Shown here piece after piece: positions 7,201 through 52,772 of a stretch of DNA of 64,000 nucleotides. The DNA is taken from contig NZ_JAQNDN010000024.1 of NCBI RefSeq assembly GCF_028369095.1, forward strand, positions 757,253 through 821,252, written 5' to 3'. This stretch comes from Nannocystis radixulma (lineage in GTDB: Bacteria; Myxococcota_A; Polyangia; Nannocystales; Nannocystaceae). The notes below the pieces were generated by a model. It saw nothing but the letters and a program-made list of their open reading frames with translations. It had not been told where the DNA came from and did not search any database. Position 1 is the stretch's first letter. Each line of letters starts with the position of its first letter. The position numbers were made by a program, and so were the translations under genes.

Positions 7201-7513
7201 CACAGGTGAGTGTGTCGTGGCCGGGCGGACGGCGGCGAGGTGCGAGGCGAAGGTCGGACTCGAGGTCGGTGCCGTGGACCGGCGAGGTGCAGCTTCGTGG
7301 TGGACCGCGACGACGTGCGGCCCCGTGGCGGCGGGGCCAAAAGCGGTGGCGAACGTCGTGCGGCGGCGAGTGGTGCCGTCTTGCGAGGATGTCTTTCGGA
7401 CATGTGCGAAGGGACATCCTCATGGAGAGCGGCGCGGCGCTGGTGATGCGGGACACAACGGGGTTTGCGTGCCTGCCTGCTGCGCATCATCCCTACAGGT
7501 CGCAGGGGGAACG

Positions 7514-12131: not shown

Positions 12132-13478
12132 TCACGCGGTTTCTTGCGCAGGCTCTTGGCCGGCTTCGCCGTCGATCGGCCGGCCCGGGCCGAACGGTTC
12201 GACGGCTCGCGAGACTCGCGGCTCGTCGACGTGGACCGGGCCGTGCACGCGGCGCAGCTCGGGGTCGATGTGCTCGCGCACGACGCGGAACAGCCCGTTG
12301 TCGAACGACTTGCCGCTGGCCGGCGCGACGTGCTCGATGCGCTCGCGCAGACCTCGAGCCTGCATGACCTCGGCGCGGTGGGCACAGAACGGGTTGTTGC
12401 CGGGGCGCCCGAGCAGCGGCTCGCTGGCGGCGGTGCAGCCGGCCATGCAGGTCTCGGCGTAGTAGCACTCGCGACAGTAGCCCCACAGATCGTCGAGGGT
12501 GCGCCGGCGGATGTAGCCGAGCTGGTAGCTGTCGTCCCAGATCTCGCGGATCGATCGCTCGCGCCAGTTACCGCCGACGTTGAGCGGGCCGCCGAGGCTG
12601 GGGCAGTTCTTGATCCCGCCGTCGCTGTCGATGCCGAGGGTGTTGACGCCCGCGCCGCAGCCGCGCCAGTGCGTGCGCAGGGCGGCGCGCAGGCGGGTCT
12701 CGAGCGGGCCGAAGTAGCCGAGGCTGTTGGCCGGCCAGAAGCGGATGCCGAGCGCGTTGCAGCGGTCGATCACCCGCTCGAGCGTGACGAACAGCTCGGG
12801 CACCATGTACGGCTGCAGGATGAGCTCGGGGTGATCGGCGGCGTTGCCGTGGGCGACGGTGAGCTGCAATTGCCAGGCGCGGATGCCCTCGGCGGCCAGC
12901 AGCTCGAGCAGGTCGAGGAGCTCGTGGCGGGTGCGCTGGTTGATCTGACAGTTGCTGGCGATCGGCAGGCCGGCTGCGCGGGCCCGCCGGAGGGTCGAGA
13001 AGGCGGCGCGCCAGCTGCCGGGGACGCCGCGCAGGCCGTCGTGGGTGGCCTCGAGGCCGTCGATCGAGACGGCGAGGCTGGACATGCCGGCGTCGATCAT
13101 CGCCGCGAGTCGATCGTCGTCGAGGTTGAGGCCGCCGGTGGTGATCATGCACTTCATGCCGGCCTCGCGGATGGCCCGCACGACGAGGATGAAGTCGTTG
13201 CGCAGGTAGGCCTCGCCGCCGATCAGCACGACCTCGCCGCAGCCGAGGTCCTTGAGCTCGGCGACGACGCGCAGGCACTCGTCGGTGTCGAGCTCGTGCG
13301 GCCGGCGCTGGCCGGCTCGCGGCCCGCAGTGGACGCACTTCTGATCGCAGGCGAGGGTGAGCTCCCAGATCGCCCAGGTGGGGTTGCCCCGCGGGGCGCC
13401 GGGGCGGCCGTAGCGGTCGGCGGCCTGCGGCAATCCGGCGACGACGGGCAGGCGACGGCGGGCGTCGGCGAGCTTCAT
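12132..13478 (-). CDS. Radical SAM / SPASM-domain peptide-modifying enzyme, paralogue 1
   Basis: CDQKCVHCG is a CxxxCxxC cluster. The C-terminal Cys-rich SPASM region reads GYCRECYYAETCMAGC…NPFC. It is about 70% identical to the 33450..34769 protein. Confidence 0.9.
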   Translation of the reverse strand: MKLADARRRLPVVAGLPQAADRYGRPGAPRGNPTWAIWELTLACDQKCVHCGPRAGQRRPHELDTDECLRVVAELKDLGCGEVVLIGGEAYLRNDFILVVRAIREAGMKCMITTGGLNLDDDRLAAMIDAGMSSLAVSIDGLEATHDGLRGVPGSWRAAFSTLRRARAAGLPIASNCQINQRTRHELLDLLELLAAEGIRAWQLQLTVAHGNAADHPELILQPYMVPELFVTLERVIDRCNALGIRFWPANSLGYFGPLETRLRAALRTHWRGCGAGVNTLGIDSDGGIKNCPSLGGPLNVGGNWRERSIREIWDDSYQLGYIRRRTLDDLWGYCRECYYAETCMAGCTAASEPLLGRPGNNPFCAHRAEVMQARGLRERIEHVAPASGKSFDNGLFRVVREHIDPELRRVHGPVHVDEPRVSRAVEPFGPGRPIDGEAGQEPAQETA

Positions 13479-13484
13479 GCGCGG

Positions 13485-13952
13485 TTACAGGGTCTCGCCG
13501 GTGGTGGTGGCCTCGGTGTCGCCCTCGGTCGCGGCCGGTGGCGCGCCGGCGGACTCGGTCTCGAGCGCGGCGGCGTAGGCGGTGGTGACGTTGAACGAGT
13601 CCATCGAGTCGCTGGCGGAGGCGCTGCCGTCGGTGGTGCTCGAGGACGTGGTGGTCGAGGTCGTGCTGGTCGTCGTCGACGTCGTGGTCGAGGTCGGCTG
13701 GTCGGTGACGGCGGTGGTGTTCTGCGTCGTCTGCCCGTCGGTGGTCTGCGCGGTCGAGGTCGGGACGGTGGTCGACTCGGTGTCGTCCGGCTTCTCGCTG
13801 CAGCTCGCGCTCATCAGGCCGAGCACCACGCCGAGGAAACGCAGGCTGCCGGGACCCTCGACGCGCCGCTGCTCGGCGCCGCAGAACGGACAGGCGGACT
13901 CGTCGCGCCGGATGGCGCGGGCACACGCGGGACAGTCGATGAGGAGCGGCAT
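13485..13952 (-). CDS. Small protein with an N-terminal CxxC-X15-CxxC module (zinc-ribbon-like), one transmembrane / lipobox helix and a Thr/Ser-rich low-complexity tail; partner of rSAM 1
   Basis: Internal ATG at 13950-13952 (MPLLIDCPACARAIRRDESACPFCGA…FLGVVLGLMSASCSEK… then TSTTTSTTTS…). It ends 7 bp before the rSAM start on the same strand. Confidence 0.7.
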   Translation of the reverse strand: MPLLIDCPACARAIRRDESACPFCGAEQRRVEGPGSLRFLGVVLGLMSASCSEKPDDTESTTVPTSTAQTTDGQTTQNTTAVTDQPTSTTTSTTTSTTSTTTSSSTTDGSASASDSMDSFNVTTAYAAALETESAGAPPAATEGDTEATTTGETL

Positions 13953-30644: not shown

Positions 30645-30746
30645 GCGCGCCTGCGCGATAGCGACGCGCGGCCCCGGGGCTGCCTTCGCGGCGCGTCGGC
30701 TCGTATGCTCGGGGCCCGCGACGTCAGCCGTCGCGACAGGAGCCCC

Positions 30747-33254
30747 ATGAACGACCGAGGCCGTGAACGAGACCTTGTCCTCGCACCGAACGAGTTCGCC
30801 TTCATCCTGGACGAGACGAAGGGCAACATCAACGTCTACGTCGGGCCGCACAAGACGAGCCTCGCCAACACCGACGCGCCGGTGGTGTTCGACGCCGGCA
30901 GCAAGCGGTTCGAACGGCGCCAGCTCGACGGCGCGATCCAGGCGCTGTCGATCGCGCCCGAGGGCTGGTACCTGGTGCTGAAGAACCCGGCGACCGACAA
31001 GAGCCACCCGCGGACCGGCGCGCTCAACAACTTGCCGTCGCTCGACACCGGCCGCAAGGTCAACATCCCCGGGCCGGCCTCGTTCGCGCTGTGGCCCGGC
31101 CAGATGGTCAGGGTCATCCAGGGCCACCACCTGCGCTCCAATCAATACCTGCTGGTCCGCGTCTACGACGAGGAGGGCGCCAAGGCCAACTGGAAGAACG
31201 CGGTGCTGCGCATGCGGCCCGAGGCGGCGCCCGACGAGGCCGAGGCCGCGGCCAGGGTGGTGCGGCCGCCCGATCTGACGATGGGCACGCTGCTGATCAC
31301 CCGCGGCACCGAGGTCGCGTTCTACATCCCGCCGACGGGCGTCGAGGTGGTGCCCGACGTCGACGGCAACTACGTGCGCGAGGCGATCACGCTCGAGCGA
31401 CTCGAGTACTGCATCCTGCTCGACGAGAACGGCAACAAGCGCTACATCCAGGGCCCCGACGTGGTGTTTCCGCAGCCGACGGAGACCTTCGTGGCGATCC
31501 GCGGCGCCCGCAAGTTCCGCGCGCTCGAGCTCAACGAGAACACCGGCCTCTACATCAAGGTCATCGCGCCGTACGAGGAGAACGGGGTCCGCTACAAGGT
31601 CGGCGACGAGCTGTTCATCACCGGCAAGGACACGATGATCTACCTGCCGCGGCCGGAGCACGCGATCATCAAGTACGGCGATCAGGAGCGTCACTACGCG
31701 GTGGCGATCCCGGCCGGCGAGGCGCGCTACGTGCTCGACCGCAACAAGGGCACGATCACGCTCAAGCGCGGGCCGGCGATCTATCTCCCCGATCCGCGCA
31801 CGGAGCTGATCATCCGCCGCGTCCTCGATCCGAAGACCGTGTCGCTGTGGTTCCCCGGCAACCGCGAGGCGTACGACTACAACCGCCGCATGGCCCAGCA
31901 GAACGCGCCGCAGATCGCGGCGGAGTTCGCGGCGGTGGCGTCGGTGCCGGTGCAGTCGGCCCGGGCCTCGGCGGCGCCCAAGGCGGCCCCCGCGGCGGCT
32001 CCCGGCGGTCCGCCGCCGCCTCCGCCGCCGCCGCCGTCGGAGTTCGCCGGCGACGACTTCACGCGCAGCCAGACCTTCACTGGCCCGCGCACGATCGTGC
32101 TCGACACCCGCTACGAGGGCGCGGTCGCCATCGACGTGTGGACCGGCTACGCGGTGCTGGTGGTGTCGAAGACCGGCGAGCGCAAGGTCGTCGCCGGGCC
32201 GCACACGCACCTGCTCGAGTACGACGAGACGTTGCAGGTGCTCGAGCTGTCGACCGGCACGCCGAAGAGCGAGCAGAACCTGTACAAGACGGTGTACCTG
32301 CGGGTGCTCAACAACAAGGTGTCCGACCAGGTCGAGGTCGAGACCCGCGACCTGGTGCGCGTGCAGCTGCAGCTCAGCTACCGCGTCAACTTCGAGGGCG
32401 ACCCGAACAAGTGGTTCGAGGTCGAGAATTACGTCAAGTTCCTGACCGACCACCTGCGCTCGCTGATCCGCGCGGCGGTCAAGCGCCACGGCATCGAGCA
32501 GTTCTACGCCGACTCGGTGGCGATCCTGCGCGACGTGATCCTCGGGACGACGGGCGAGGACGGCAAGCGCCCCGGTCGTCGCTTCGAGGAGAACGGCATG
32601 CGCGTGTACGACGTCGAGGTCCTCGAGGTCACGATCGGCGACGAGGCGATCGCCGAGCTGCTGGTCCAGGCGCAGCACGCCGCGGTCCAGCAGACGCTGT
32701 CGCTGGCGGCCGAGCAGCGCCGGCTCGAGATGGTGCGCCAGACCGAGGGCGTGACGCAGCAGGTCGCCGAGGCCAAGTCGGCGACGCTGCAGCAGGCGAT
32801 CGCGCTGCGTACCCGCGAGGGCGAGCAGCAGCAGCGCTATCAGCTGGCCGAGCTGGCGGCCAAGCTCGACCTGCACGAGCGGCAACAGCAGGCGCTGCTG
32901 GCCGAGCAGGAGCGGGTGGGGGCGATCCACGGGGCCGACCTCGGCCGCCGTCAGGCCACGGCCCAGCTCGATCTGTCGATCCAGCAGCAGCAGCTCGACC
33001 AGCGCCTGCGCGAGCTGCAGGCCGAGGTCATGGCGGTGGTCGAGAAGGCGCGGGCGGTCTCGCCCGACCTCATCGCCGCGCTGCAGGCGTTCGGCGACCG
33101 GGCCCTGGCCGAGAAGATGGCGGAGTCGATGGCGCCGCTGGCGATCCTCGGCGGAGAGAGCGTGGCCGAGGTGCTCGGCCGCCTGCTCCGCGGCTCTCCG
33201 CTGGCGCGCCTGCTGCCGGCCGGCGAGGCGAAGACCGAGACACCGAAGTCGTGA
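30747..33254 (+). CDS. Major vault protein (MVP) homologue
   Basis: Internal ATG at 30747 preceded by gacaggagcc. The N-terminal MVP repeat units resemble FAFILDETKGNINVYVGPHKT, YLVLKN…, YIKVIAPYEENGVRYKVGDELFI and so on. These are followed by a shoulder-like region and a long coiled-coil-like tail (QQQLDQRLRELQAEV…). Confidence 0.8.
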   Translation: MNDRGRERDLVLAPNEFAFILDETKGNINVYVGPHKTSLANTDAPVVFDAGSKRFERRQLDGAIQALSIAPEGWYLVLKNPATDKSHPRTGALNNLPSLDTGRKVNIPGPASFALWPGQMVRVIQGHHLRSNQYLLVRVYDEEGAKANWKNAVLRMRPEAAPDEAEAAARVVRPPDLTMGTLLITRGTEVAFYIPPTGVEVVPDVDGNYVREAITLERLEYCILLDENGNKRYIQGPDVVFPQPTETFVAIRGARKFRALELNENTGLYIKVIAPYEENGVRYKVGDELFITGKDTMIYLPRPEHAIIKYGDQERHYAVAIPAGEARYVLDRNKGTITLKRGPAIYLPDPRTELIIRRVLDPKTVSLWFPGNREAYDYNRRMAQQNAPQIAAEFAAVASVPVQSARASAAPKAAPAAAPGGPPPPPPPPPSEFAGDDFTRSQTFTGPRTIVLDTRYEGAVAIDVWTGYAVLVVSKTGERKVVAGPHTHLLEYDETLQVLELSTGTPKSEQNLYKTVYLRVLNNKVSDQVEVETRDLVRVQLQLSYRVNFEGDPNKWFEVENYVKFLTDHLRSLIRAAVKRHGIEQFYADSVAILRDVILGTTGEDGKRPGRRFEENGMRVYDVEVLEVTIGDEAIAELLVQAQHAAVQQTLSLAAEQRRLEMVRQTEGVTQQVAEAKSATLQQAIALRTREGEQQQRYQLAELAAKLDLHERQQQALLAEQERVGAIHGADLGRRQATAQLDLSIQQQQLDQRLRELQAEVMAVVEKARAVSPDLIAALQAFGDRALAEKMAESMAPLAILGGESVAEVLGRLLRGSPLARLLPAGEAKTETPKS

Positions 33255-33449: not shown

Positions 33450-34769
33450 ATGAGCTTAAGTGATGTGCGTCGTCGTCTGCCCGTGGTGGCCTCGCTGCCC
33501 GCACCCGACAACCGGTGGATGACGAACCCGGCCCGACGCGAGGCCAAGGCGCCGCGCTGGGCGGTGTGGGAGCTGACCCTCGCGTGTGACCAGCACTGCG
33601 CCCATTGCGGCCCGCGAGCAGGCCAGCGGCGGCCCAACGAGCTCACGACCGAGGAGTGCCTGCAGGTGGTGCGCGAGCTGAAGGAGCTCGGCTGCGGCGA
33701 GGTGGTGCTGATCGGCGGCGAGGCCTATCTGCGCAACGACTTCATCCTGATCATCCGCGCCATCCGCGAGGCCGGGATGGCGTGCACGATGACGACCGGC
33801 GGCCTCAACCTCAACGAGGAGCGGGCCGCGGCGATGATCGAGGCCGGGATCGGCAGCGTGACGTTCTCGATCGACGGCCTGCAGGCCACGCACGATCGCC
33901 TGCGCGGGGTGCCGGGCAGCTGGGAGCGCGCGTTCGCGGCGATGCGGCGGATCCGCGATGCCGGCGGCCGGATCGCCAGCAACACCCAGATCAACGCGCT
34001 GACCCGCACCGAGCTGCTGCCGCTGTTCGAGCTGCTGGCCGACGAGGGCATCCATTCGTGGCAGCTGCAGATCACGGTGCCGCACGGCAACGCGGCCGAC
34101 CACCCGGAGATCCTGCTGCAGCCGCACATGTTCCTCGACATCTTCAAGACGCTCGAGCAAGTGCTCGACCGCTGCGAAGCCCGCGGAGTGCGGCTGTGGC
34201 CGGGCAACAACCTCGGCTACTTCGGCCCGCTCGAGCGGCGCATGCGGAACTCCCAGCGCAAGCACTGGCGCGGCTGCACGGCCGGGGTGTCGGTGATGGG
34301 CATCGAGAGCGACGGCTCGATCAAGAACTGCCCGAGCCTCGGCGGCGGCAACAACATCGGCGGCAACTGGCGCGTGCACGGGGTCAAGAAGGTGTGGGAA
34401 GAGTCGTATCAGCTCGGCTACATCCGCGCGCGCACGGTCGACGACCTGTGGGGCTATTGCCGCGAATGCTACTACGCCGAGACTTGCATGGCCGGCTGCA
34501 CGGCCGCGGCCGAGCCGCTGCTCGGGCGCCCGGGCAACAATCCCTTCTGCCACCACCGGGCACTGATGATGGATCGGGCAGGACTGCGCGAGCGCATCGA
34601 GCAGATCCGCGGGGCGGGCGGGCAGCCGTTCGACAACGGGCTGTTCCGGGTGATCCGCGAACACGCCGATCCGGCGCTGCGGGAGCTGCACGGGCCGGTC
34701 GCGGTCGAGGAGCCGCGGGTGTCGCGGGCCGAGGAGCCTTTCGGGGCGGGGCGGACGCTCGTGCTCTGA
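33450..34769 (+). CDS. Radical SAM / SPASM-domain peptide-modifying enzyme, paralogue 2
   Basis: CDQHCAHCG cluster and a SPASM C-terminus. It is collinear with the 12132..13478 protein along its whole length. Confidence 0.9.
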   Translation: MSLSDVRRRLPVVASLPAPDNRWMTNPARREAKAPRWAVWELTLACDQHCAHCGPRAGQRRPNELTTEECLQVVRELKELGCGEVVLIGGEAYLRNDFILIIRAIREAGMACTMTTGGLNLNEERAAAMIEAGIGSVTFSIDGLQATHDRLRGVPGSWERAFAAMRRIRDAGGRIASNTQINALTRTELLPLFELLADEGIHSWQLQITVPHGNAADHPEILLQPHMFLDIFKTLEQVLDRCEARGVRLWPGNNLGYFGPLERRMRNSQRKHWRGCTAGVSVMGIESDGSIKNCPSLGGGNNIGGNWRVHGVKKVWEESYQLGYIRARTVDDLWGYCRECYYAETCMAGCTAAAEPLLGRPGNNPFCHHRALMMDRAGLRERIEQIRGAGGQPFDNGLFRVIREHADPALRELHGPVAVEEPRVSRAEEPFGAGRTLVL

Positions 34770-34794
34770 TTGGTTCGGCGCGGGGCCGGGTGTG

Positions 34795-35070
34795 GCGCTT
34801 CGCGAATTGCCGACTGCGCCTCGCGGGGGGTCCGGGGAAGGGTCGGCGACGAGTTCAGCGTCTGGATGGACGCTCGTTCCTCGCGCCCATCCTGCCTCGT
34901 ATTCGTCGCCGACCCTTCCCCGGACCCCTGGCACGGCTGCAGCCGTGAGAGGCCGACGCGGCGTCGTCGGCTTCGATGGAGGATGTCCTGAGGGACAGGT
35001 CATGAGCGCCTGTTCGACGGCCAGGGCTGGCCGCCGAACAGACGCATTCTCGGGTCATTCACGCCGCGTC
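34795..35070. repeat. Copy A of a ~200-bp repeat (inverted copy B at 41065-41246); it carries an extra ~97-bp palindromic insertion
   Basis: 34795-34838 aligns with the reverse complement of 41202-41246, and 34935-35070 aligns with the reverse complement of 41065-41200. Identity is about 85%. Confidence 0.75.
34828..34927. other. Perfect 24-bp inverted repeat forming a hairpin with a ~52-nt loop, between the convergent rSAM 2 and partner genes; candidate bidirectional terminator or MITE-like insertion
   Basis: gggtccggggaagggtcggcgacg at 34828-34851 pairs exactly with cgtcgccgacccttccccggaccc at 34904-34927. Copy B contains only one arm. Confidence 0.6.
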
Positions 35071-35229
35071 ATTCCCAGGCGGGGACGCTCGCGCGGGGAG
35101 CCGCATCGACGCAGGTCGACGGGCATGCCGAGACGGGCATTATAGACAATAATATGATGTGTCCGTCAGGACAGGTCCGGACAGACATGCGGGCCGCGAG
35201 GGCGTTCGCGGCGGATCAGGGGCGCGAGC

Positions 35230-35823
35230 TCAACCGCCGGTGGTGCCGGTGCTGGTGGTCTCACCGGTGGTGCCGGTGCTCGTGCTGGTGCTCTCGGGGC
35301 CGCCGGTGCCGGTGGTCGTCCAGCCCTCGTCGGGGCCGGCGTAGGTCGAGGCGTCCGTGGTACTCCAGTTCGTCGTGGTCGTGGTGGTGGAGGGGCCGGC
35401 CGTGGTGGTCGTGGTGGTGTCCCAGTCGGTGGTCCACCCCTCGTCGGGACCGGCGTAGGTGGAGCCGTCGCCCGAGGGATTCGGCGGATCGACGGTCGTG
35501 TCGCCGACGGTGTTCTCGCCGCCAGAGGTGGTGGTGAGGGGGCCGTTGGAGGTCGAGGTGTCGCCGGAGGTCGAGGTGTCGCCGGCGGTCTCGGAGTCGG
35601 CCGCGGCCTCGGTGCCGGACTCGCTCGGATCGGTGGTCGCCGTGTCGCCGGGTTCCTTGTCGAGCTGGCAGGCGGCACCCATCACACCGAGGCTCGCGCT
35701 CAGGGCGATTGCCGTCCACGAGGGGCTGAACGTGTGACGCTGAGTGTGACCGCAGAACGGGCAACTGGCGTCGGACGCTCGGAATAGACAGGCGCACTCA
35801 GGGCAATCGATAAGAGAAGACAT
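35230..35823 (-). CDS. Paralogue of the 13485..13952 protein: an N-terminal CxxC…CxxC module, a transmembrane/lipobox helix, and a Thr/Ser/Gly-rich tail with DEGWTT repeats
   Basis: Internal ATG at 35821-35823 (MSSLIDCPECACLFRASDASCPFCGH…TAIALSASLGVMGAACQLDK… then TSTSGDTSTS… and STYAGPDEGWTT twice). Confidence 0.7.
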   Translation of the reverse strand: MSSLIDCPECACLFRASDASCPFCGHTQRHTFSPSWTAIALSASLGVMGAACQLDKEPGDTATTDPSESGTEAAADSETAGDTSTSGDTSTSNGPLTTTSGGENTVGDTTVDPPNPSGDGSTYAGPDEGWTTDWDTTTTTTAGPSTTTTTTNWSTTDASTYAGPDEGWTTTGTGGPESTSTSTGTTGETTSTGTTGG

Positions 35824-35895: not shown

Positions 35896-38340
35896 GTGGG
35901 ATACACTCGCGCGGTGTCTTTCGCGCTCGCGCTGGCGCTCGTGCTGTTGTCGGCGAGCCTTGTCGGGCTGGTGGCGCTGCACCGTGAAGCGCTGCGGCGG
36001 GCGCTGCTGCGTGCGGTCGACCCGAGACCGCTGGCGCTGTTCCGGATCGCGTTCGGTTGTTGTCTGCTGGCGACAACGGTCGAGATCGCGCCGCTGCTCG
36101 ACTATCTATTCTCCGACGAGGGCCTGCTGCCGCGTGCCGTGGTGCCGGAGCTCATGGGGCGCGGGGCGACGGTCGGCTTCGGCGACGGCGTGCGCGAGCC
36201 CGCGGGCCCGCGCGACCTGGCGGCGCTGGTCGAGTTCGTGATCAGCGGGCGCTGGTCGCCGCTTTACTTCGGGGACAGCCCGACGGCGGTGCGGCTGCAT
36301 TTCGCGGGGCTGGTGGTCGCGGCACTCGGGCTGACGCTGGGCTGGCGCACCCGCGTCAGCACGATCCTCTGCTGGCTGCTGTACGCCGGGCTGCTGCGCC
36401 GCGGCGACGCCCACTGGGGCGGCGAGCAGGTGTTCTGCGCGTTCCTGTTCCTGCTGATGTGGTCGCGCTGCGGGGCGGCGTTCAGCGTCGACAACTGGCG
36501 GCGCTGCCGGGCTCTGCGACGACGTGGCTTTTTGAGCATGTCCTCGGGACCAGGCGCCGGGGCGGGCCTGGCTCCGTCGCCGGCGGCGCCGCGGGGGCTG
36601 GCAGCGATCTACCGCCGGATCCCCGCGTGGCCGCAGGCGCTGATCGCCGCCCAGCTGGCGCTGTGCTACGCCGTCAACGGCTGGGCCAAGTCGGGCCCGA
36701 CGTGGCGCTCGGGCGACGCGCTGCTGCTGGTGTTGTCGCGCGACACATATGTCCGTTGGGACATGTCCGCGGCGATCGCCGCGGTCGGGCCGTGGCCGCT
36801 GCGCCTGGCCAGCTGGGGCGTGGAATGGTGGGAGCGGCTGTTCCCGCTGGTGCTGGTCGGGCTGGCGCTGCGGGCCGTGGCGCGCAGCGGAGCGCCGGCG
36901 CTGCAGGGGGCCGCGAGCGCGGGGGCGCGGCTGTGTTGGGCCGGGATCGCGGTGGCGGCGGGGCTGGCCGTGGCTGTCCCTCAGGACCTGGTGGAAAAGT
37001 CAGGTGATCCCGGCGGCTTCGAGCGCGCGGCGACGCTGGCGGTGCTGGCGGCGATCACCGCGGCGGTGGCGATCGCGGGGCCGCGGGCGGCGGCGGTGGG
37101 TCGGCGCCTGGCCGCGGGACCGCTGGCGCCGCGCTGGTGGCTGGGGTTCGGGGCGCTGTTCCACCTCGCCAACCACGCGCTGCTGGCCGTGGGAGCGTTC
37201 GCGCCGGCGACGCTGGCGGCTTATCTGGTGTGCGGGGCGGGTCCGTGGGCGATTGCGATGTTGCAGCGAGCGCTGGGCGGGCTGGCACGCCTGGGCTTAC
37301 CTGTCCCCGAGCACCTGCGCCGAGAGACAGCCATCGCGGCGGAGGATCCGTCGCTGCCGCACCTGCACCGCGACGCGGCGGCGCTGCCGGGGTGGGCGAT
37401 CGCGGCCGCCGGCGGGGTGGTGCTGGCGGGCGGACTGGTGGGGCTGGCCGCGGGCGCCGGGCCGCGGGCGTGGCACGCGGCCTGGCTGGCCGCAGGGACA
37501 GGTCTGACGATCGTCGGCTGGAGGGTCGCGCGGCGCCGTCGCAGCGAGACGACGGCGCTGGTCGAGCCGTGGGCGCACGGTCCGGCGGGTCGCCTGGCGG
37601 CCGGGGGGCTCGTGGCGTACCACGTGGTCGCGCTGCTGGTGTGGCAGCTGCCGGCGTGGTCGAGCCTGCCGTGGCGCGGGCCCGTGCGGGCGCTGGTCGG
37701 GCCGTGGATCGAGCTCAGCTACACCAGCCAGGTGTGGTCGATGTTCGCGCCCAATCCCCCGCGCGATCAGATGCTGGTGCGGACGACGGTGGTCGACGCG
37801 GCCGGGGTCCGCCACCGCTTCGGTGAGGGGCCGCAGCGCGCGGACGATCTGCCGCTGCCGCATCCGTGGCACGATCGCTGGCGCAAGATCGGCGACAATC
37901 TGCTCGGGCAGCGCGAGCGCATGTCGCTGTGGCACGTGCGCTACCTGTGCCGCCGCTGGGCGCTCGAGCACGCGGGCGAGCCGGCCCGCGAGGCGCGGCT
38001 CGAGGGGCTGCGCGCGCCGTTCGCTCCGCCCGGCAGCGAGCGCCAGGAGCACTTCGCGGCGCACGTCGAGACGCGGGTGCTGGCGCAGCTGAACTGCGCG
38101 GAGGAGCCGTTCGCCCAGCTGGCCCCCGAGGTGCGCGCGCGCCACGGGCTGCCGCCCGCGCCGCCCGGATCGCTGCGCTTCGCGTGGGCGCCGGAGCGGG
38201 CGGCGACGTGGGCCGAACGACGCACGCGTCGCGATCCGTTGGCGCCCTTGTGGCCGCTGGCGGCGCTGGGGCTGCTGGCGGCGCTGGCGAGGTGGGCGCG
38301 CGAGGATCGGCGGGGACGTGCACCGGCGGGTGATTCGTAG
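35896..38340 (+). CDS. HTTM (vitamin-K-dependent gamma-carboxylase-like) domain polytopic membrane protein with a C-terminal DUF5819/SdpB-like region
   Basis: N-terminal HTTM pattern (LALFRIAFGCCLL…), many transmembrane helices, and the C-terminal block VWSMFAPNPPRDQMLVRTTVVDAAG…WRKIGDNL. Confidence 0.65.
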   Translation: MGYTRAVSFALALALVLLSASLVGLVALHREALRRALLRAVDPRPLALFRIAFGCCLLATTVEIAPLLDYLFSDEGLLPRAVVPELMGRGATVGFGDGVREPAGPRDLAALVEFVISGRWSPLYFGDSPTAVRLHFAGLVVAALGLTLGWRTRVSTILCWLLYAGLLRRGDAHWGGEQVFCAFLFLLMWSRCGAAFSVDNWRRCRALRRRGFLSMSSGPGAGAGLAPSPAAPRGLAAIYRRIPAWPQALIAAQLALCYAVNGWAKSGPTWRSGDALLLVLSRDTYVRWDMSAAIAAVGPWPLRLASWGVEWWERLFPLVLVGLALRAVARSGAPALQGAASAGARLCWAGIAVAAGLAVAVPQDLVEKSGDPGGFERAATLAVLAAITAAVAIAGPRAAAVGRRLAAGPLAPRWWLGFGALFHLANHALLAVGAFAPATLAAYLVCGAGPWAIAMLQRALGGLARLGLPVPEHLRRETAIAAEDPSLPHLHRDAAALPGWAIAAAGGVVLAGGLVGLAAGAGPRAWHAAWLAAGTGLTIVGWRVARRRRSETTALVEPWAHGPAGRLAAGGLVAYHVVALLVWQLPAWSSLPWRGPVRALVGPWIELSYTSQVWSMFAPNPPRDQMLVRTTVVDAAGVRHRFGEGPQRADDLPLPHPWHDRWRKIGDNLLGQRERMSLWHVRYLCRRWALEHAGEPAREARLEGLRAPFAPPGSERQEHFAAHVETRVLAQLNCAEEPFAQLAPEVRARHGLPPAPPGSLRFAWAPERAATWAERRTRRDPLAPLWPLAALGLLAALARWAREDRRGRAPAGDS

Positions 38341-38623: not shown

Positions 38624-40360
38624 ATGCAGGCGGCGCCGTTCATCACGTTCTGGTCGGCTCACGGCGGCGTGGGTCGGACGCTGGCAGTGCTGGGCGTCGG
38701 GCGCGTGCTGGCGGCGCGTGGGCTGCGGGTGTTGCTCGTCGACGCCGATCTCGAGGCGCCGGGACTGTCGCGGCTGGTCGGCGGCGACGGCGACGGCCTC
38801 GTGGAGCTGATGACGGCGGGGGTGCCGGAAGCCGCGGCGATGGCAGGGTGCTGTGCGACGATCGCGGGGACGCTGCGGGTGCTGCGGGCGGGCCGGCTCG
38901 ACGCAGCGTACTGGGATCGCCTGGACGCGTGGCCGCAGGGCGAACGCGCGGCGGCGTTGCACGAGCTGCGGCGCCGGATCGACACTGCCGAGATCGCTGA
39001 CGTGGTGCTGGTCGACGGCCCGCCGGGGCTGTCGCGGGCGACGGAGCGGGTGGTGCGGGCGCTCGCCGATCGCGTGGTGGTGTTGACGGCGATCAATCAG
39101 CAGCAGGTCGCGGGCACGGCCGAGCTGCTGCGCCGCTGCCGCGCGGCGGAGCTGCCGGCGCGGGTGGTGTACGGCCCGCTGCCGCTCGGCGAGGACGAGC
39201 TGACGGCGGCGCGCGAGGAGGCGGCGCGCGTGGCGTTCGCGGACGAGGCGCTCGCGCTGTCGGGGCCGATCCCGCAGCACCCGCGGCTGGCGCTTCACGA
39301 ACAGGCGAGCGAGCGCGGGCCGGTGCACGCGGCCCACGTGGCGCTGGCGCGCGAGCTGCTGGTCGACGCGGGGTTCGAGGTGCGGGCGCTCCTCCGCGGC
39401 GTCGAGGCGGCGATCGAGGCACAGGCGTGGGCCCGCGCGCTGGCGCTATTGCGGGTGGCGATCGTCATCGAGCCGACGGGGGCGTCGCTGGGGTCGTTGT
39501 TCCCGCGGTTGCGCGAACACATGACGCCGGCTGCCGCGAGCGACCCGTTGTTCGCGTTGCTCGCGGAGGCGCTGCCGGTCGACTCACCGCGGCTGGCCAG
39601 CTTCGCCACCGCGCTGCATTCGGCCGGCAACCCGCTGGCGCGCCGTTTTTATGAGAAGTTCCTGGCCGACGCGCCGGACCACGCGGACATGCTCGGCAAC
39701 TTCGCGGCGTTCCTGAGCGACGTGTGCGGCGAGCACGACCTCGCCGAGGCGTACTACGAGCAGGCGCTGGCGGCCGCACCGGACGACGCCGATCACCTCG
39801 GCAACTTCGCCAACTTCCAGGCGCTGGTCCGCGGCGATCGGGCGCGGGCCGATGCCTGCTACCAGGCGACGATCGCGGCCGCGCCGGACGATGCGCATCA
39901 CCTCGGCAACTACGCCAACTTCCGCGTTGCGACGTTCGCCGACGTCGCCGGCGCCGAGGCGCTGTACCGCCGCGCGCTGGCGGCCGATCCGGAGGACGCC
40001 AACTTGCTCGGCAACTTCGCCAGGTTGCTGTTCGCGGAGGGACGCGGCGCGGAGGGGCGCGAGCTGCTGGCGCGGGCGCTGGAATTGTCGGAGGCCGGGT
40101 CGCCGCTGCGCTGCGAGCTGTGCTTCTACGCGTACGCGCACGCGCCCGAGGTCGTGCCCGACGCGCTGGCGCAGCTGCGCGAGATGCTGGCGAGCGGGGT
40201 GCGCTCTCCCGGCTGGGAGCTGGTAGCGAACGTGGCCCGGGTCCGCCTGGACGGCCACGCGGAGCCGGAGTTGCTGGCAACACTGGCCCGCGTGATCGCG
40301 GACGAGGCTCCGCTGGCGGCGCTCGACGCCTTCGTGGCGTGGGTGCGGTCGAGCGAGTGA
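38624..40360 (+). CDS. Fusion of a degenerate ParA/MinD-like P-loop domain to TPR repeats
   Basis: FWSAHGGVGRTLAVLGVGRVLAARGLRVLLVDADLEAPGL resembles a deviant Walker A in which Arg replaces the usual Lys. The C-terminal half has repeated DADHLGNFANF…Y…AL units, read as TPR repeats. Confidence 0.6.
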   Translation: MQAAPFITFWSAHGGVGRTLAVLGVGRVLAARGLRVLLVDADLEAPGLSRLVGGDGDGLVELMTAGVPEAAAMAGCCATIAGTLRVLRAGRLDAAYWDRLDAWPQGERAAALHELRRRIDTAEIADVVLVDGPPGLSRATERVVRALADRVVVLTAINQQQVAGTAELLRRCRAAELPARVVYGPLPLGEDELTAAREEAARVAFADEALALSGPIPQHPRLALHEQASERGPVHAAHVALARELLVDAGFEVRALLRGVEAAIEAQAWARALALLRVAIVIEPTGASLGSLFPRLREHMTPAAASDPLFALLAEALPVDSPRLASFATALHSAGNPLARRFYEKFLADAPDHADMLGNFAAFLSDVCGEHDLAEAYYEQALAAAPDDADHLGNFANFQALVRGDRARADACYQATIAAAPDDAHHLGNYANFRVATFADVAGAEALYRRALAADPEDANLLGNFARLLFAEGRGAEGRELLARALELSEAGSPLRCELCFYAYAHAPEVVPDALAQLREMLASGVRSPGWELVANVARVRLDGHAEPELLATLARVIADEAPLAALDAFVAWVRSSE

Positions 40361-40920: not shown

Positions 40921-41064
40921 GGGTCCGGGTCTCCGGACGCGAGCATGGGCGAGGACACGCCCCCGCGCCAGCGCGAACCCGTGAATGGTCATGGCCTGTT
41001 TGAAAAGGCATGTCTTGAAGTTCATGTCGATGAATGCGCCTGGCAAGCGGCCGCCGCCGGAGAT

Positions 41065-41246
41065 GACACGCCGTCATGACCTGAGAAAGCGTCTGGTCGG
41101 CGGCCAGCCCTGGCCGTCGACCAGGCGCTGGCAACCTGCTCCAAAGGACATCCTCCATCGGAGTCGAGGACGGCGTGTCGGCCTCTCACGGCTGCAGCCT
41201 TCCCCGGACCCCCCGCGAGGCGCAGTCGGCAATTCGCGAAGCGAGC
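41065..41246. repeat. Copy B (inverted) of the ~200-bp repeat
   Basis: Reverse-complement alignment to 34795-35070; see copy A. Confidence 0.75.
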
Positions 41247-48757: not shown

Positions 48758-49858
48758 TCACGCTGCGCGCGACCACAGCGCCGCGTCGAGCTCGGCGCAT
48801 AGCCGCGTGGCCACCGCGGCCGAGGGCACGCCGAGCCGCTGCAGCGCCGGCACCTCGAGTCGCTGCAGCGACGCGTCCAGCTCCGCGATCGCCGCCTGTC
48901 GCGCGGCTGCGACCTCGGCTCTGCCGGCGACATCGAGCTGTCCCATGAGCCAGGCGTCGATCGCCCACGCCAGTTCGGCGTGACGCGCCTCGTCGGCGGC
49001 GATCTCGGCGTACATGCTGCGCATCGCAGGCTCGGCGGCGAAGCGGGCCTGATGGGCCGCCGACAGCGCCGCCCAGGTCTCGCGCACGCAGCCCTCGACC
49101 GCGTTCTCGACGGCGATCGCCAGCAGATCGCGCTCGGCCACCGCGACGTAGGCCGGCGGCGTGACCTCGGCGCCGCGAGCCCGCGCGGCGTCGGCGACGA
49201 CCTGGGCGTGGCGGACCTCGTCCGCGGCGGCGGCATCGATGCGCGCCAGCAGCTCGGCCGGCGCGCCAAGGTCTGCCAGCTCCTGCGCGAGCGCCTGGAA
49301 CGCGTGAACCGAGGCCGCCTCGTCGTGAGCCGCGCGCGCCAGCCAGGCCGCGGCCGCTTCGGCGTCGCCCCCGTGCCCCCGCGACGCCACGCTCGCGTGC
49401 CGCCGGCCCTCGCAGTAGGCCAGGTAGACGCACGTGACCGTCACCTTGTTGGCGACCTTGACGACATCGCACGATTTCAGAGATTCGTGCTGTTCGCCCG
49501 CAGGCTGGCAGACGACCTCGCAGGTCTCCTCGTCGGAGAGCACGACGCCGCCCGTCGTGCTCGCGTCCGTCGTGCTCGCGTCCGTCGTGCTCGCGTCCGT
49601 CGTGCTCGCGCCCGTCGTGCTCGCGTCCGTCGTCCCCTCGGAGGTGGTCGGCCCGGCGGTCGTGTCACCGCCGAGGACCGGCATGCCGCCATGCTGAAAC
49701 TCCGCGTATTCCTCGGGTGTCATCTCGATCTTGTCCTCGTAGGTCGTCGGGCATTCACCGCGCGGGGGATAGCAGCCGGACAGCAAGACCGAGAACAGCG
49801 CCGCCAGTGACACATCGAGTCTATTGAAAGAAGAAGAGATAAGCGGATTCGAACTCAT
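48758..49858 (-). CDS. Lipoprotein with a ferritin-like (di-iron-type EARHAE) C-terminal domain and an (ASTTD)n repeat linker
   Basis: Internal ATG at 49856-49858 (MSSNPLISSSFNRLDVSLAALFSVLLSGCYPP). Five 15-bp tandem repeats at ~49550-49630 encode TDAST units. The C-terminal domain has paired E…H helices. Confidence 0.6.
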   Translation of the reverse strand: MSSNPLISSSFNRLDVSLAALFSVLLSGCYPPRGECPTTYEDKIEMTPEEYAEFQHGGMPVLGGDTTAGPTTSEGTTDASTTGASTTDASTTDASTTDASTTGGVVLSDEETCEVVCQPAGEQHESLKSCDVVKVANKVTVTCVYLAYCEGRRHASVASRGHGGDAEAAAAWLARAAHDEAASVHAFQALAQELADLGAPAELLARIDAAAADEVRHAQVVADAARARGAEVTPPAYVAVAERDLLAIAVENAVEGCVRETWAALSAAHQARFAAEPAMRSMYAEIAADEARHAELAWAIDAWLMGQLDVAGRAEVAAARQAAIAELDASLQRLEVPALQRLGVPSAAVATRLCAELDAALWSRAA

Positions 49859-50178
49859 GCCGCCGAGGCTAGCAGGCCGCTCCCTGCACGCCAAGCCGCC
49901 CCTGCACGCCGCGCTCAGTCGCCGCGGTGCCGCGCTGAATTTGCCGCTGAGCATTGCTGCGCGCCGGTCGAGACACGGCACAGCCGCAGGCGGTAGGTCT
50001 CATGCACGTCGAGGGCGCTCCGGAAATCGGTCGGCCTGACCTCGGGGACAGGTTGATTTCTCGTGGTGCTGGGGACGCAGCGGGAGGACTGGACCTGGCG
50101 CGCAGGCGGCGGGCCGATCCGACCCTCGTCCGCCCGCTCGACAATCGCCACAGGCCCCGCGCCCGCGAGTGCACGATG

Positions 50179-51288: not shown

Positions 51289-52772
51289 GTCTTTTTGCCC
51301 ATGTTGATGATGACCTTCTTCGACCCGGTATGGATCACCGGGCGCGGATCGGCGAACTTGCGCACGCAGGCGACGCCGTCGCCGAACGGGCCCGCGCCCT
51401 CGTAGATCGGCTCGATGACGACGCGGCCGGCGCGATCGATGTAGCCCCACTTGTGGTCGATGCGGACGGCGGCGAGGCCCTCGCTGAAGCTCTGGGCCAG
51501 GTCGAAGCGCGGCTCGATGACGATGCGGCCCTCGCGGTCGATGAAGCCGGTCTTGGCGCCGACGCCGACCGGGGCCAGACCCTCGGCGAAGTTGCCGGCG
51601 CGGAGGAAGCGGAAGTCGACCGCGGCGGTGCCGCTGGTGTCGCAGTAGCCGTACTGGCCGCTGTCGCCGACGGCGGCGAGGCCGTCGTGGAAGTCGCCGG
51701 CGTCGGTGAAGCGCGGCTCGATGGCCCACGCGCCGGTGACGTCGATGAAGCCGAACAGGTCGTCCTGCTGCACGCAGGCGAGGCCCTCGCAGAACTCGCC
51801 GGCGTAGTCGAAGCCGGCGGGGACGACGACTTGGCCGGTGCGGTCGATGTAGCCCCAGGCGGGCACGCCGATCCGCGACAGCGCGCGGAACGGGGCCCGG
51901 CCGGCGGTGAAGCGGCCGAGCTGCGAGGCCTGCGGCGGGGCCGGCACGAACGTACCGTTGCGATCGCAGTAGCCGGTCTGGTCGCCGAGCTGCACGCACG
52001 CGAGGCCGTCGGAGAAGCTGGCGGCGGCGGCGTAGGCGGCGGGGATGGCGAGCGCGCCGTGGACGTCGATGAAGCCCCAGCCGCCCTCGAGCCGCACGGC
52101 GGCGAGGCCCTCGCTGAAGCCGAGCGTGAGCGCGTAGGTCGGGGCGATGACGACCTCGCCGGTGGCGCGGACGAAGCCGAAGCGGTCGCCGTCGCGGAAC
52201 GGCAGCAGGCCGCTCGCGTGCGGCAGGGCGAACCGCAGGGCCGAGGCCGCGAGCACGGCGCCGCGCGGGTCGATCAGCTGGAAGGTGCCGGGCTCGCCGT
52301 GCGGGTTGACGTAGGGGAAGTCGATGTTGCGCAGCAGGGCGCCCATCAGCGCGTCTGGCGATTCGGACAGGTCGGCGCCCGACTCGACGCGGCTGGCGAC
52401 GCGGTCGAGCAGGGCCACGACCTCCTTCATGCCGGTCGGCGCGTCGCCGAGGTAGGTGCCGAACTCGTGGCCGAGGCGCAGGGTGCAGCGCGACTTCTTC
52501 TTCGGGCCCTCGAGCACCTCGATCTCGTGCTGGTAGTCGGCCATCGCGTCGCCGTGCAGGCCGGTCGCCGCCTTGAAGCCGTACTGCGCCAGGCGGCCGA
52601 GGATGTCGCCGTACACCTCGGGCGGCAGCTGCACCTCGCACTGCCGACCTTGCGAGCTCCACGTCGCGCGCCCGTCGGGGTCGAGCGTCAGCGTGTCGAC
52701 CTCGCTCGAGTGGCGGGAGCCGACGCGATAGACGATCTGGGTCGCACGGCTGAGGGTGCCGGTGGCGTTCAT
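51285..52772 (-). CDS. WG-repeat (KWG/PF14903-like) beta-propeller-like protein
   Basis: About ten repeats of the form F.EGLA.V…G.WGYIDR.G..VI.P. Confidence 0.75.
   Translation of the reverse strand: MNATGTLSRATQIVYRVGSRHSSEVDTLTLDPDGRATWSSQGRQCEVQLPPEVYGDILGRLAQYGFKAATGLHGDAMADYQHEIEVLEGPKKKSRCTLRLGHEFGTYLGDAPTGMKEVVALLDRVASRVESGADLSESPDALMGALLRNIDFPYVNPHGEPGTFQLIDPRGAVLAASALRFALPHASGLLPFRDGDRFGFVRATGEVVIAPTYALTLGFSEGLAAVRLEGGWGFIDVHGALAIPAAYAAAASFSDGLACVQLGDQTGYCDRNGTFVPAPPQASQLGRFTAGRAPFRALSRIGVPAWGYIDRTGQVVVPAGFDYAGEFCEGLACVQQDDLFGFIDVTGAWAIEPRFTDAGDFHDGLAAVGDSGQYGYCDTSGTAAVDFRFLRAGNFAEGLAPVGVGAKTGFIDREGRIVIEPRFDLAQSFSEGLAAVRIDHKWGYIDRAGRVVIEPIYEGAGPFGDGVACVRKFADPRPVIHTGSKKVIINMGKKT

Follow-up and report, generated by a model that had tools for sequence, protein, structure and literature searches.

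Much new post-translational chemistry comes from radical SAM (rSAM)/SPASM enzymes that are paired with target peptides. Many of these SPASM maturases act on Cys-rich peptides, and SkfB, which acts on SkfA, is a thioether-forming SPASM enzyme. PqqE, which acts on PqqA, joins Glu to Tyr, residue types that are conserved in the partner motif described below, and the anaerobic sulfatase-maturating enzyme (anSME) modifies a secreted protein before export. Other families are known mainly from gene context. Members of TIGR04133 ("rSAM_w_lipo") presumably pair with an adjacent lipoprotein gene, as we take from the family name. Members of TIGR03913 (GDL-motif-peptide-associated maturase) are peptide maturases inferred from genomes and encoded in small cassettes, and true members adjoin DUF1842/DUF1843 genes (PMC12114271). 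In the literature searched, we found nothing on TIGR03913, on TIGR04103 (Nif11-class peptide radical SAM maturase 3), or on radical SAM RiPPs of Nannocystis.

A second relevant group is formed by the vitamin-K-dependent carboxylase homologues. Enzymes of the GGCX type require a reduced naphthoquinone. To our knowledge, the bacterial homologues have had no established function ever since the HTTM domain received its name. SdpB of B. subtilis is an HTTM-type maturation factor, a parallel that we do not use as evidence. The bacterial HTTM enzyme MloH is described as carboxylating Asp (PMC12186529; bioRxiv 10.64898/2026.08.19.745780). In the literature searched, we found no report that associates an HTTM protein with both an rSAM/SPASM enzyme and a defined protein partner.

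Two rSAM/SPASM cassettes in Nannocystis radixulma

We analyzed a stretch of 64,000 nucleotides from N. radixulma (contig NZ_JAQNDN010000024.1, positions 757,253 to 821,252), hereafter the window. It contains two cassettes, each encoding an rSAM/SPASM enzyme and a partner protein (Table 1). In cassette 1, rSAM1 lies on the same strand as the partner gene and starts 6 nt downstream of it. In cassette 2, the two genes are convergent and face each other across a spacer of 460 bp (34770-35229), at exactly the coordinates given in a preliminary description of this locus. The partner genes are apparently uncalled in the public annotation of the source genome. rSAM1 matches WP_272008973.1 of N. radixulma exactly, and a "radical SAM protein" of Nannocystis sp. 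SCPEA4 has the same sequence as rSAM2 (100% identity). Alignment of the cassettes bears out the proposal that they encode the same two protein families. The enzymes share 305 of 437 residues (70%) over their full length, and the partners share 27 of 64 (42%, E 2e-14) in the N-terminal domain only, the rest being low-complexity sequence. A weak tblastn match of the partner tail at ∼49556-49681 was discarded as Thr-rich low complexity in an unrelated lipoprotein.

Table 1. Coordinates of genes and structured elements in the window
Feature	Position	Strand	Remarks
rSAM/SPASM gene, cassette 1 (rSAM1)	12132..13478	-	448 aa
Partner gene, cassette 1	13485..13952	-	155 aa; same zinc ribbon (predicted) and lipobox-like signal
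rSAM/SPASM gene, cassette 2 (rSAM2)	33450..34769	+	439 aa
Repeat copy A, long form	34797..35075		∼279 bp of the 460-bp spacer
Perfect 26-bp inverted repeat	34827-34852 / 34903-34928		50-nt loop
Two short stem-loops	35160..35212	-	just downstream of the partner stop codon
Partner gene, cassette 2	35230..35823	-	197 aa; N terminus MSSLIDCPEC
HTTM/GGCX-like membrane protein gene	35896..38340	+	divergent from the cassette 2 partner
Repeat copy B, short form	41043..41243	-	inverted relative to copy A

Both enzymes belong to the Radical SAM superfamily and have a SPASM domain. Radical_SAM (PF04055) is matched with 89.4 bits by rSAM2 and 83.1 bits by rSAM1, and SPASM (PF13186) with 25.7 bits by rSAM1, above the cut-off of 21.5, and 17.4 bits by rSAM2. 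rSAM2 displays the CxxxCxxC motif (C46-x3-C50-x2-C53) and seven SPASM cysteines (C276, C294, C337-x2-C340-x5-C346-x3-C350, and C367). The two best family matches of the enzyme are peptide-maturase rSAM/SPASM families (E 1e-129 and 1e-123). The top match of rSAM2 is TIGR04103 over nearly its full length (430.8 bits, E 4e-129), a family in which the two enzymes score 430.8 and 386.6 bits, both below the cut-off of 725. It is followed by TIGR03913 (412.9 bits for rSAM2 and 408.6 bits for rSAM1, E ∼1e-123, below the curated cut-off of 591.75), the match reaching from the rSAM core through the SPASM domain into the C-terminal extension. TIGR04133 comes third with 155 bits, far below its cut-off of 425. 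The nearest solved structures by sequence are SkfB (E 2.5e-17) and PqqE (E 7e-10).

The gene context nonetheless departs from each of these systems. Like TIGR03913 maturases, rSAM2 sits in a small cassette, but its partner has no match of the DUF1842/DUF1843 type (GDL motif) and a completely different architecture. In contrast to TIGR04103, there is no Nif11-type leader gene nearby, the partners have no Nif11 Pfam match, and the partner is instead a predicted exported protein of 150-350 aa. The pairing of a SPASM enzyme with a lipoprotein-type partner resembles TIGR04133 by family name, the partners themselves being uncompared. Identity to PqqE and SkfB is low. Pfam finds neither a PqqD/RRE domain nor any other additional domain in the rSAM proteins, whose N-terminal extension is only ∼35 aa, and there is no small PqqD-like gene in their conserved neighborhood. 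Finally, the substrate proposed here is a long repeat-bearing lipoprotein precursor, not a short peptide or an enzyme as for PqqE/PqqA, SkfB/SkfA, and anSME.

Conservation of the rSAM-partner pair

Across 37 loci seen in all, the evaluable ones coming from a single family, Nannocystaceae, the partner gene adjoins the rSAM gene in 32 of the 34 evaluable genome loci. This is much stronger evidence for a functional link than the double retention on which the link had originally been proposed. The same adjacency is found in metagenome contigs. Two rSAM loci (L022 and L041) are without a partner, and orphan partners without a nearby rSAM gene also exist. The pairs fall into three ancient paralogous types with three gene orders, and each rSAM clade is paired with its own variant of the partner motif. 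In the co-directional types the two genes are tightly coupled, with the 6-nt gap of cassette 1 and, in one locus (L044), an overlap of 4 nt. Outside the genus Nannocystis, only the rSAM, partner, and HTTM genes stay together while flanking genes change, and the three are still adjacent in a locus with a reshuffled order (L015).

Several candidates were set aside. L037, at a contig end of N. exedens, is a frame-shifted duplicate of L025 and was treated as an assembly artifact. For an FAD-dependent gene upstream of cassette 1 and a 352-aa gene downstream of it, conservation is limited to N. punicea, and for the vault-like and ParA/TPR genes around cassette 2 it is limited to the genus, so none of them was counted as part of the module.

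The partner is a putative lipoprotein with a predicted zinc ribbon and a repeated Tyr motif

Partners of all groups lack a Pfam match (E <= 0.01) and an NCBIfam match. The cassette 2 protein begins with a predicted Cys4 zinc ribbon (C7, C10, C21, and C24) followed by R29. Next comes a hydrophobic segment closing in C52 within a lipobox-like GAAC, and then a disordered tail rich in Thr, Ser, and Asp. Invariant positions in the family are C7, C10, C21, P22, F23, C24, R29, and C52, and an N terminus of the MSSLIDCPEC type is common to the orthologues of this partner. In an AF2 model, residues 1-30 form two β-hairpins (pLDDT 80-88) with strands at 4-7 and 12-15, a helix spans 35-48, and the remainder is disordered. 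Sequence and model are thus consistent with a zinc ribbon of two CxxC knuckles on β-hairpins that would bind metal.

The position before the Cys closing the hydrophobic segment is A, S, or G in 130 of 136 family members, position -2 is A, V, L, or I, and G-D-K typically follows directly. This putative lipobox is pattern-based, and its Cys, at about residue 51 behind a 30-aa ribbon, lies later than in ordinary lipoproteins. Some family members carry a MYXO-CTERM-type tag at the C terminus, suggesting that the tail is outside the cytoplasm.

The sole conserved feature of the tail is a short motif centered on Tyr, with the consensus D-[GA]-[SV]-T-Y-[AG]-G-P-D-[ES]. It occurs 140 times in 72 of 73 partner proteins, with one to four copies of D-G-S-T-Y-A-G-P-D-E per tail, and the cassette 2 partner has two copies of D-[GA]-S-T-Y-A-G-P-D-E-G-W. 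The core common to all three pair types is Y-[AG]-[GA]-[PA]. Considering that cassette 1 partners in Nannocystis have a degenerate form (TTAYAAALETE) and group-3 partners have LPLPYGAPP, only the Tyr and small residues are shared.

A third gene of the HTTM/GGCX family

A third conserved gene, divergent from the cassette 2 partner gene, was missed in the preliminary description. Its product matches HTTM (PF05090) with 44.6 bits, against a Pfam cut-off of 27.7, and has no NCBIfam match. A PDB search with the single protein sequence gave no match, the family profile being needed. This profile matches human GGCX (E 8e-7) and aligns an invariant K265 with the catalytic K218. Both the GGCX fold and the catalytic Lys are recovered, which places the protein in the HTTM/vitamin-K-dependent carboxylase family. 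His160 of GGCX is apparently not conserved, in a stretch where the alignment is of low confidence. The protein differs from GGCX in that identity is 12-17% and the global TM-score only 0.33-0.38, and the partner contains no sequence resembling a propeptide or a Gla domain. The HTTM gene is the constant third neighbor of cassette-2-type pairs and accompanies only this one of the three pair types.

The spacer of cassette 2 contains a dispersed structured repeat

The spacer had been described as a repeat copy plus a perfect hairpin of 24 bp. Both elements are present; the hairpin has 26 bp, extends to 35 nt at 89%, and forms part of the repeat in its long form rather than a feature of its own. 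Copy A consists of the long hairpin module, a small hairpin, and a 3′ extended-stem module (∼34955-35072). Copy B, located between a DUF1552-type gene and a GFA-family gene, is 100% identical to copy A over a block of 46 nt and 82-85% over a block of 132-167 nt; the 85 bp with which copy A completes the hairpin (34842-34926) are missing from it. Shuffled sequences gave no match like that between copies A and B. Downstream of an ATP-synthase c-like ORF, a metagenome contig (L047) contains a third copy, which is full-length and 88-91% identical. Comparison of the three copies shows seven compensatory pair changes, and folding is far more stable than in shuffles (z -7.1 for the spacer; z -10.4 and -101 kcal/mol for the hairpin module). 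In five other Nannocystis species, the orthologous spacer does not contain the repeat, which is a dispersed structured element inserted in a lineage-specific manner.

This element resembles REP/BIME or MITE-like repeats in being short (190-280 bp), non-coding, highly structured, and intergenic, and in occurring at several places in long and short forms. It differs from them in that we identified neither terminal inverted repeats nor target-site duplications nor a transposase, and only three copies were seen. In the whole window, no Rfam family reached its gathering score, and sub-threshold miRNA-like matches over the hairpin were dismissed as look-alikes of any long hairpin. A scan for promoters and terminators found nothing in the spacer. 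Other Nannocystis species retain a palindrome at the place of the two short stem-loops, suggesting a possible terminator, a function that we infer. The spacer stands outside the modification mechanism, and insertion of the repeat adds, at most, a strong bidirectional hairpin between convergent genes.

A possible protein-modification module

We give about an even chance to the reading that cassette 2 is one instance of a protein-modification module that is conserved in, and specific to, Nannocystaceae. The module would comprise a maturase and its exported-lipoprotein substrate, and in the cassette-2 type a carboxylase-like reaction would follow as a second step. The partner would be the substrate. 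The cytoplasmic rSAM/SPASM enzyme would recognize the precursor, and because the enzyme is without an RRE domain, the N-terminal zinc ribbon would probably be the docking or "leader" element. 5′-Deoxyadenosyl radical chemistry would then act on the repeated Tyr motifs, producing for example a cross-link to a nearby Asp/Glu or another Tyr-centered change. As the enzyme is cytoplasmic while the tail bearing the motifs is predicted to be exported, this modification would have to precede export. Cleavage and lipidation at the invariant Cys would follow, removing ribbon and signal. In the cassette-2 type, the periplasm-facing GGCX-like enzyme might modify the protein a second time in a quinone-dependent reaction, most plausibly by carboxylating the conserved Asp/Glu in the motif, a step for which MloH offers a precedent. 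Both where and how the partner would be modified are guesses. More speculative, and in our view rather doubtful, is the specific version in which the lipoprotein is doubly modified, on the Tyr motifs by the cytoplasmic rSAM/SPASM enzyme and then by menaquinol-dependent carboxylation (Gla-like or carboxy-Asp) by the GGCX-like enzyme, which would make the trio the first bacterial vitamin-K-carboxylase homologue with a genetically linked protein substrate.

Alternatively, the partner might be an accessory protein whose cytoplasmic ribbon anchors the rSAM enzyme at the membrane, next to the HTTM enzyme. The true substrate would then be a small molecule (a quinone or lipid used by the HTTM enzyme) or another protein. 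The ribbon is indeed the best-conserved region of the partner and shares its side of the membrane with the rSAM enzyme. The missing RRE, the low-complexity, fast-evolving tail, and the naphthoquinone requirement of GGCX-type enzymes would also fit. We nevertheless consider such a role unlikely. An HTTM neighbor is absent from two of the three pair types, the enzymes are nearest to peptide-maturase SPASM families and not to quinone-pathway rSAM proteins, and cleavage at the lipobox-like Cys would be expected to remove the ribbon. Moreover, a 10-residue Tyr motif that is conserved and repeated amid freely drifting sequence needs a selective reason.

It is also improbable, although four invariant cysteines and one nearly invariant one lie within 25 residues, that the Cys-rich N-terminal 30 residues are themselves the modified core, carrying thioether bridges of the sactionine or ranthionine type, with the rest as carrier. 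This would agree with the nearest solved relative being SkfB and with the frequency of Cys-rich substrates among SPASM maturases. However, CPxC...CPFCG is a canonical zinc knuckle pair, AF2 folds the N terminus confidently as a ribbon, and the partner family profile also picks up unrelated proteins that have generic tandem zinc ribbons. Nor would this reading account for the conserved Tyr repeats.

The preliminary description regarded cassette 2 as rearranged and the locus as recombination-prone. The corresponding reading, that cassette 2 duplicates cassette 1 in a recently rearranged form and that the repeat and hairpin mark such a locus, might draw on the mutual inversion of the cassettes and on the repeat and its second inverted copy, 6 kb away, flanking the partner-HTTM-ParA/TPR-GFA block. 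We judge it very improbable and already contradicted by the comparisons between genomes. Identity between the cassettes is only 70% for the rSAM proteins and 42% for the partners. Each cassette has its own orthologues in other genera, and a neighbor-joining tree shows that the two are ancient paralogues. Convergence is the conserved state of cassette-2 paralogues in Nannocystis, Paraliomyxa, and many MAGs. In N. punicea, which is without the repeat, the cassettes lie ∼20 kb apart on opposite strands (L006 and L026), so that convergent order and 20-kb spacing are kept, and collinearity with this species between the two repeat copies indicates that there was no inversion. The occurrence of the repeat in an unrelated context elsewhere also speaks against this history. 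Most remote of all is the absence of any functional link, with adjacency as synteny inherited among close relatives: all loci come from one family, but the pair or trio persists while flanks differ between genera, adjacency survives three different gene orders, and three paralogous pairs have co-diversified.

The enzyme clade and the partner family are both without a curated family or a description in the literature. As a target, the partner would be unusual, since it bears a signal, is probably lipidated, has a predicted zinc ribbon ahead of the signal, and carries short repeated Tyr motifs. As a GGCX-like enzyme with an intact catalytic lysine is always present in the cassette-2 type, this partner offers a concrete candidate for what a bacterial vitamin-K-carboxylase homologue acts on. 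If double modification were true, the product of the module would be a doubly modified, metal-binding surface protein.

Results

Cassette 2 pairs a radical SAM/SPASM enzyme (rSAM2) with a small adjacent gene, its partner. The start codon of partner 2 was fixed from its orthologues, which have the same N terminus. A tblastn search of the window with both cassette-2 proteins located cassette 1. The observation of two paralogous cassettes made in the preliminary description is confirmed with small corrections: the genes of cassette 2 do converge across a 460-bp spacer, and protein alignment shows that rSAM1 and rSAM2 are 70% identical over 437 residues and that the partners match at 42% across 64 N-terminal residues (E 2e-14), with low-complexity sequence beyond. 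The perfect inverted repeat claimed for the spacer is present, but it is 26 bp long (34827-34852/34903-34928), not 24. Between 28 and 46 kb, the window (G+C ∼72%) aligns collinearly to Nannocystis punicea with a nucleotide identity of 78-92%, two intergenic spacers excepted. As in the window, N. punicea carries both cassettes ∼20 kb apart on opposite strands (loci L006 and L026).

Features of the two cassettes and their surroundings
Feature	Position	Strand	Remarks
rSAM1	12132-13478	-	tblastn; 6 nt from partner 1
Partner 1	13485-13952	-	tblastn; precedes rSAM1
Major-vault-protein-like gene	30705-33254	+	849 aa; MVP shoulder 105 bits, vault repeats, SPFH/Band-7 match
rSAM2	33450-34769	+	ORF, 439-aa radical SAM/SPASM protein
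Copy A, long form	∼34797-35075		dispersed structured repeat
Partner 2	35230-35823	-	ORF, 197 aa, N terminus MSSLIDCPEC
HTTM/GGCX-like gene	35896-38340	+	800 residues; adjoins partner 2
ParA/CbiA-type P-loop protein	38624-40360	+	C-terminal TPR repeats; after HTTM gene
Copy B, short form	41043-41243	inverted relative to copy A	lacks 85 bp of the long form
Lipoprotein-like ORF	48758-49981	-	15-nt tandem repeat 49534-49664 encoding (TTDAS)n

Both rSAMs display a CxxxCxxC motif and the complete seven-Cys SPASM pattern. A protein of Nannocystis sp. SCPEA4 matches rSAM2 at 100% identity, and WP_272008973.1 of Nannocystis radixulma has exactly the sequence of rSAM1, which assigns the window to that myxobacterium or to a strain nearly identical to it. 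Their top NCBIfam matches, TIGR04103 (Nif11-class maturase 3) and TIGR03913 (GDL-motif-peptide-associated maturase), have E-values of ∼1e-116 to 1e-129 and miss the curated cut-offs by far (431 versus 725 and 413 versus 592, respectively), as does the next, TIGR04133 "rSAM_w_lipo" (155 versus 425). True TIGR03913 genes adjoin DUF1842/DUF1843 genes (PMC12114271); the genes of this window have no such neighbors. By sequence, the nearest solved structures are SkfB and PqqE, and no RRE/PqqD domain is detectable in the rSAMs. The clade is large, generically annotated throughout and limited to Nannocystaceae (Nannocystis, Plesiocystis, Enhygromyxa, Pseudenhygromyxa, and Paraliomyxa).

A genome scan with the rSAM alignment found 37 loci, all in Nannocystaceae, three of which were not evaluable: L030 and L038, cut by contig ends, and L037, a degraded duplicate. 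The partner adjoins the rSAM gene in 32 of the 34 evaluable loci, the exceptions being L022 and L041, which upholds the previously proposed functional link between the two families. Locus L037 (N. exedens NZ_NETK01000001.1) is a fragmented, frame-shifted copy of the whole cassette-2 neighborhood at the end of a contig that also bears an intact cassette-2 locus (L025), and is probably an assembly artefact of the overlapping contig end. In L022 (9458-14800), an rSAM of the cassette-1-related clade lacks a zinc-ribbon partner; the gene after it encodes instead a 1780-aa repeat protein rich in Cys.

In a neighbor-joining tree, the rSAMs form three old clades. Enzymes of the cassette-2 clade share 77% identity or more with rSAM2; of its 16 partner-bearing genome loci, 15 have a convergent partner and one, L015, has it downstream and co-directional. 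In the cassette-1 clade the partner usually lies directly upstream on the same strand, and the third clade has either a convergent partner with a CPAC...CCFC ribbon or a longer form upstream. Metagenome contigs agree with these arrangements. Considering this distribution, the convergent order is the ancestral state of the cassette-2 paralogue, and the split between the cassettes long predates the divergence of the sampled genera, which contradicts the rearrangement previously invoked.

In every partner-bearing cassette-2-type locus, an 800-residue gene beside the partner, usually divergent from it, completes the module (in L015, it is on the other side of the rSAM gene). Its product scores 44.6 bits for the HTTM domain (cut-off 27.7), and its family is narrow, comprising 67 database clusters from Nannocystaceae only. 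The family profile matches human vitamin-K-dependent γ-carboxylase in four collinear segments (E 8e-7), aligning invariant K265 to the catalytic K218 of the human enzyme. The AlphaFold2 model is confident (pLDDT 85.7, pTM 0.89), and Foldseek matched it to GGCX structures only (probability 1.0, ∼700 aligned columns). The vault-like gene directly upstream of rSAM2 is kept beside the trio only within the genus Nannocystis. In L045 (6001-8557), from a different Nannocystaceae genome, an orphan partner homologue (P0021) with no rSAM nearby is followed by a ParA/CbiA-TPR-type gene like the one in the window, which may reflect chance or an additional link.

Searches of Pfam and NCBIfam with the partners gave no match, and homologues occur only in Nannocystaceae-type genomes and metagenomes. 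Asp6, Cys7, Cys10, Cys21, Pro22, Phe23, Cys24, Arg29, and Cys52 are invariant, and Cys12, Leu13, and Gly25 nearly so. AlphaFold2 models residues 1-30 as two β-hairpins (pLDDT 80-88), 35-48 as a helix, and the rest as disordered, giving a predicted N-terminal Cys4 zinc ribbon followed by a positively charged residue and a short hydrophobic segment. This segment terminates at an invariant Cys, preceded in 130 of 136 members by Ala/Ser/Gly at −1, mostly by Ala/Val/Leu/Ile at −2, and typically followed by Gly-Asp-Lys, a pattern that marks a putative lipobox-like signal-peptidase-II site, unusually late at ∼residue 51. Some family members end in a MYXO-CTERM-type tag, which likewise points to a tail outside the cytoplasm. 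Rich in Thr/Ser/Asp/Gly, the tail drifts freely except for a repeated motif, D-[GA]-[SV]-T-Y-[AG]-G-P-D-[ES], with 140 instances in 72 of 73 proteins (1-4 copies each), including two in the cassette-2 partner (DGSTYAGPDEGW and DASTYAGPDEGW). The Nannocystis cassette-1 partner has a degenerate TTAYAAALETE and the third paralogue group LPLPYGAPP, hence a common core Y-[AG]-[GA]-[PA].

When 1.84 billion representatives were searched with a profile built on the first 56 residues, ∼50 strong matches shared the architecture and motif variants; generic tandem zinc ribbons in unrelated proteins matched as well. The exact sequences of both window partners are absent from a 15-billion-protein collection, and the best database match to partner 2 is only 54% identical, although this strain's neighboring rSAM and HTTM proteins are present. 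Gene calling for the public annotation of the source genome therefore appears to have missed the partner genes. Second partner-like genes lie near the module in L004 (5887-6447 and 8001-8561, one on each side of the rSAM gene), L012 (12551-13228), L016 (4460-4960), and L024 (5810-6382), and some extra copies have a MYXO-CTERM-type end. The lipoprotein-like ORF was rejected as a partner relative, its likeness to the tail being low complexity only.

The repeat reported in the spacer was borne out. Copies A and B share 46 nt at 100% and ∼160 nt at 82-85% identity, and shuffled sequence gave no such match. Structure in the spacer far exceeds that of shuffles, with z-scores of −7.1 (whole spacer) and −10.4 (hairpin module). 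The element is absent from the shorter orthologous spacers of N. punicea, N. exedens, N. pusilla, N. bainbridge, and strain RBIL2, which share with the window only a palindrome just past the partner stop codon. It is a dispersed family, since metagenome contig L047 has the full long form, including the hairpin (88-91% identity over ∼290 bp), downstream of an ATP-synthase c-subunit-like ORF. Of the predicted pairs, 96% are maintained among the three copies, and compensatory double changes affect seven (0-1 in slid-partner controls); with only three sequences, from which the structure was derived, this covariation is suggestive rather than conclusive. Rfam gave no match, and no terminal repeats or target duplications of the element were identified. 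Although the locus had been considered recombination-prone, gene order from copy A to copy B is collinear with N. punicea, so the copies have mediated no inversion. An AT-rich patch, CATTATAGACAATAATATGATGTG (35133-35160), lies between the repeat and the partner's 3' stem-loops in this 72% G+C genome, with no counterpart in other Nannocystis spacers.

Elsewhere in the window, two ∼640-bp segments 1.9 kb apart (5973-6613 and 7878-8500; 71-77% identical) suggest tandem paralogous genes, with 77-98-nt direct repeats (6783-7217; 81-87% identity) clustered in the interval. Six copies of a 102-nt-period repeat (51362-52181; 64-75% identity) on the coding strand of a large gene probably encode a repeat-domain protein.

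Discussion

What the data show is that the genes remain linked, how the three proteins are built, and that the Tyr motif is conserved. Beyond this, we infer a pathway in which the partner would be a precursor protein. The cytoplasmic rSAM/SPASM enzyme would bind it, probably via the zinc ribbon since the rSAM has no RRE, and modify its Tyr motifs before export. Such modification ahead of export would parallel that of secreted sulfatases by the anaerobic sulfatase-maturating enzyme. The exported partner would then be cleaved and lipidated at Cys52, and the GGCX-like enzyme, facing the periplasm, may modify conserved Asp/Glu residues in modules of the cassette-2 type. That rSAM and partner are enzyme and substrate we consider fairly probable; the entire chain, through the GGCX-like step, is at best evenly balanced. 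Two rivals give the partner other roles: a membrane tether for the rSAM, or a protein whose Cys ribbon is a thioether core. A third, recent rearrangement of the cassettes, runs against the conserved convergent order, and a fourth takes the rSAM-partner adjacency as pure synteny; beyond the genus Nannocystis the flanks differ, and only the rSAM, partner, and HTTM genes persist.

A radical SAM/SPASM enzyme with a neighboring target is a known general kind. What is new is the rSAM clade, the zinc-ribbon/lipobox/Tyr-repeat partner family, and the constant tie to a GGCX-like enzyme. Our literature search yielded no paper that connects HTTM proteins to both a radical SAM enzyme and a partner protein. 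MloH, a bacterial HTTM enzyme, carboxylates an aspartyl residue (cited in PMC12186529 and bioRxiv 10.64898/2026.08.19.745780). The testable reading of higher value is that the trio may represent a bacterial carboxylase homologue having a defined protein substrate.
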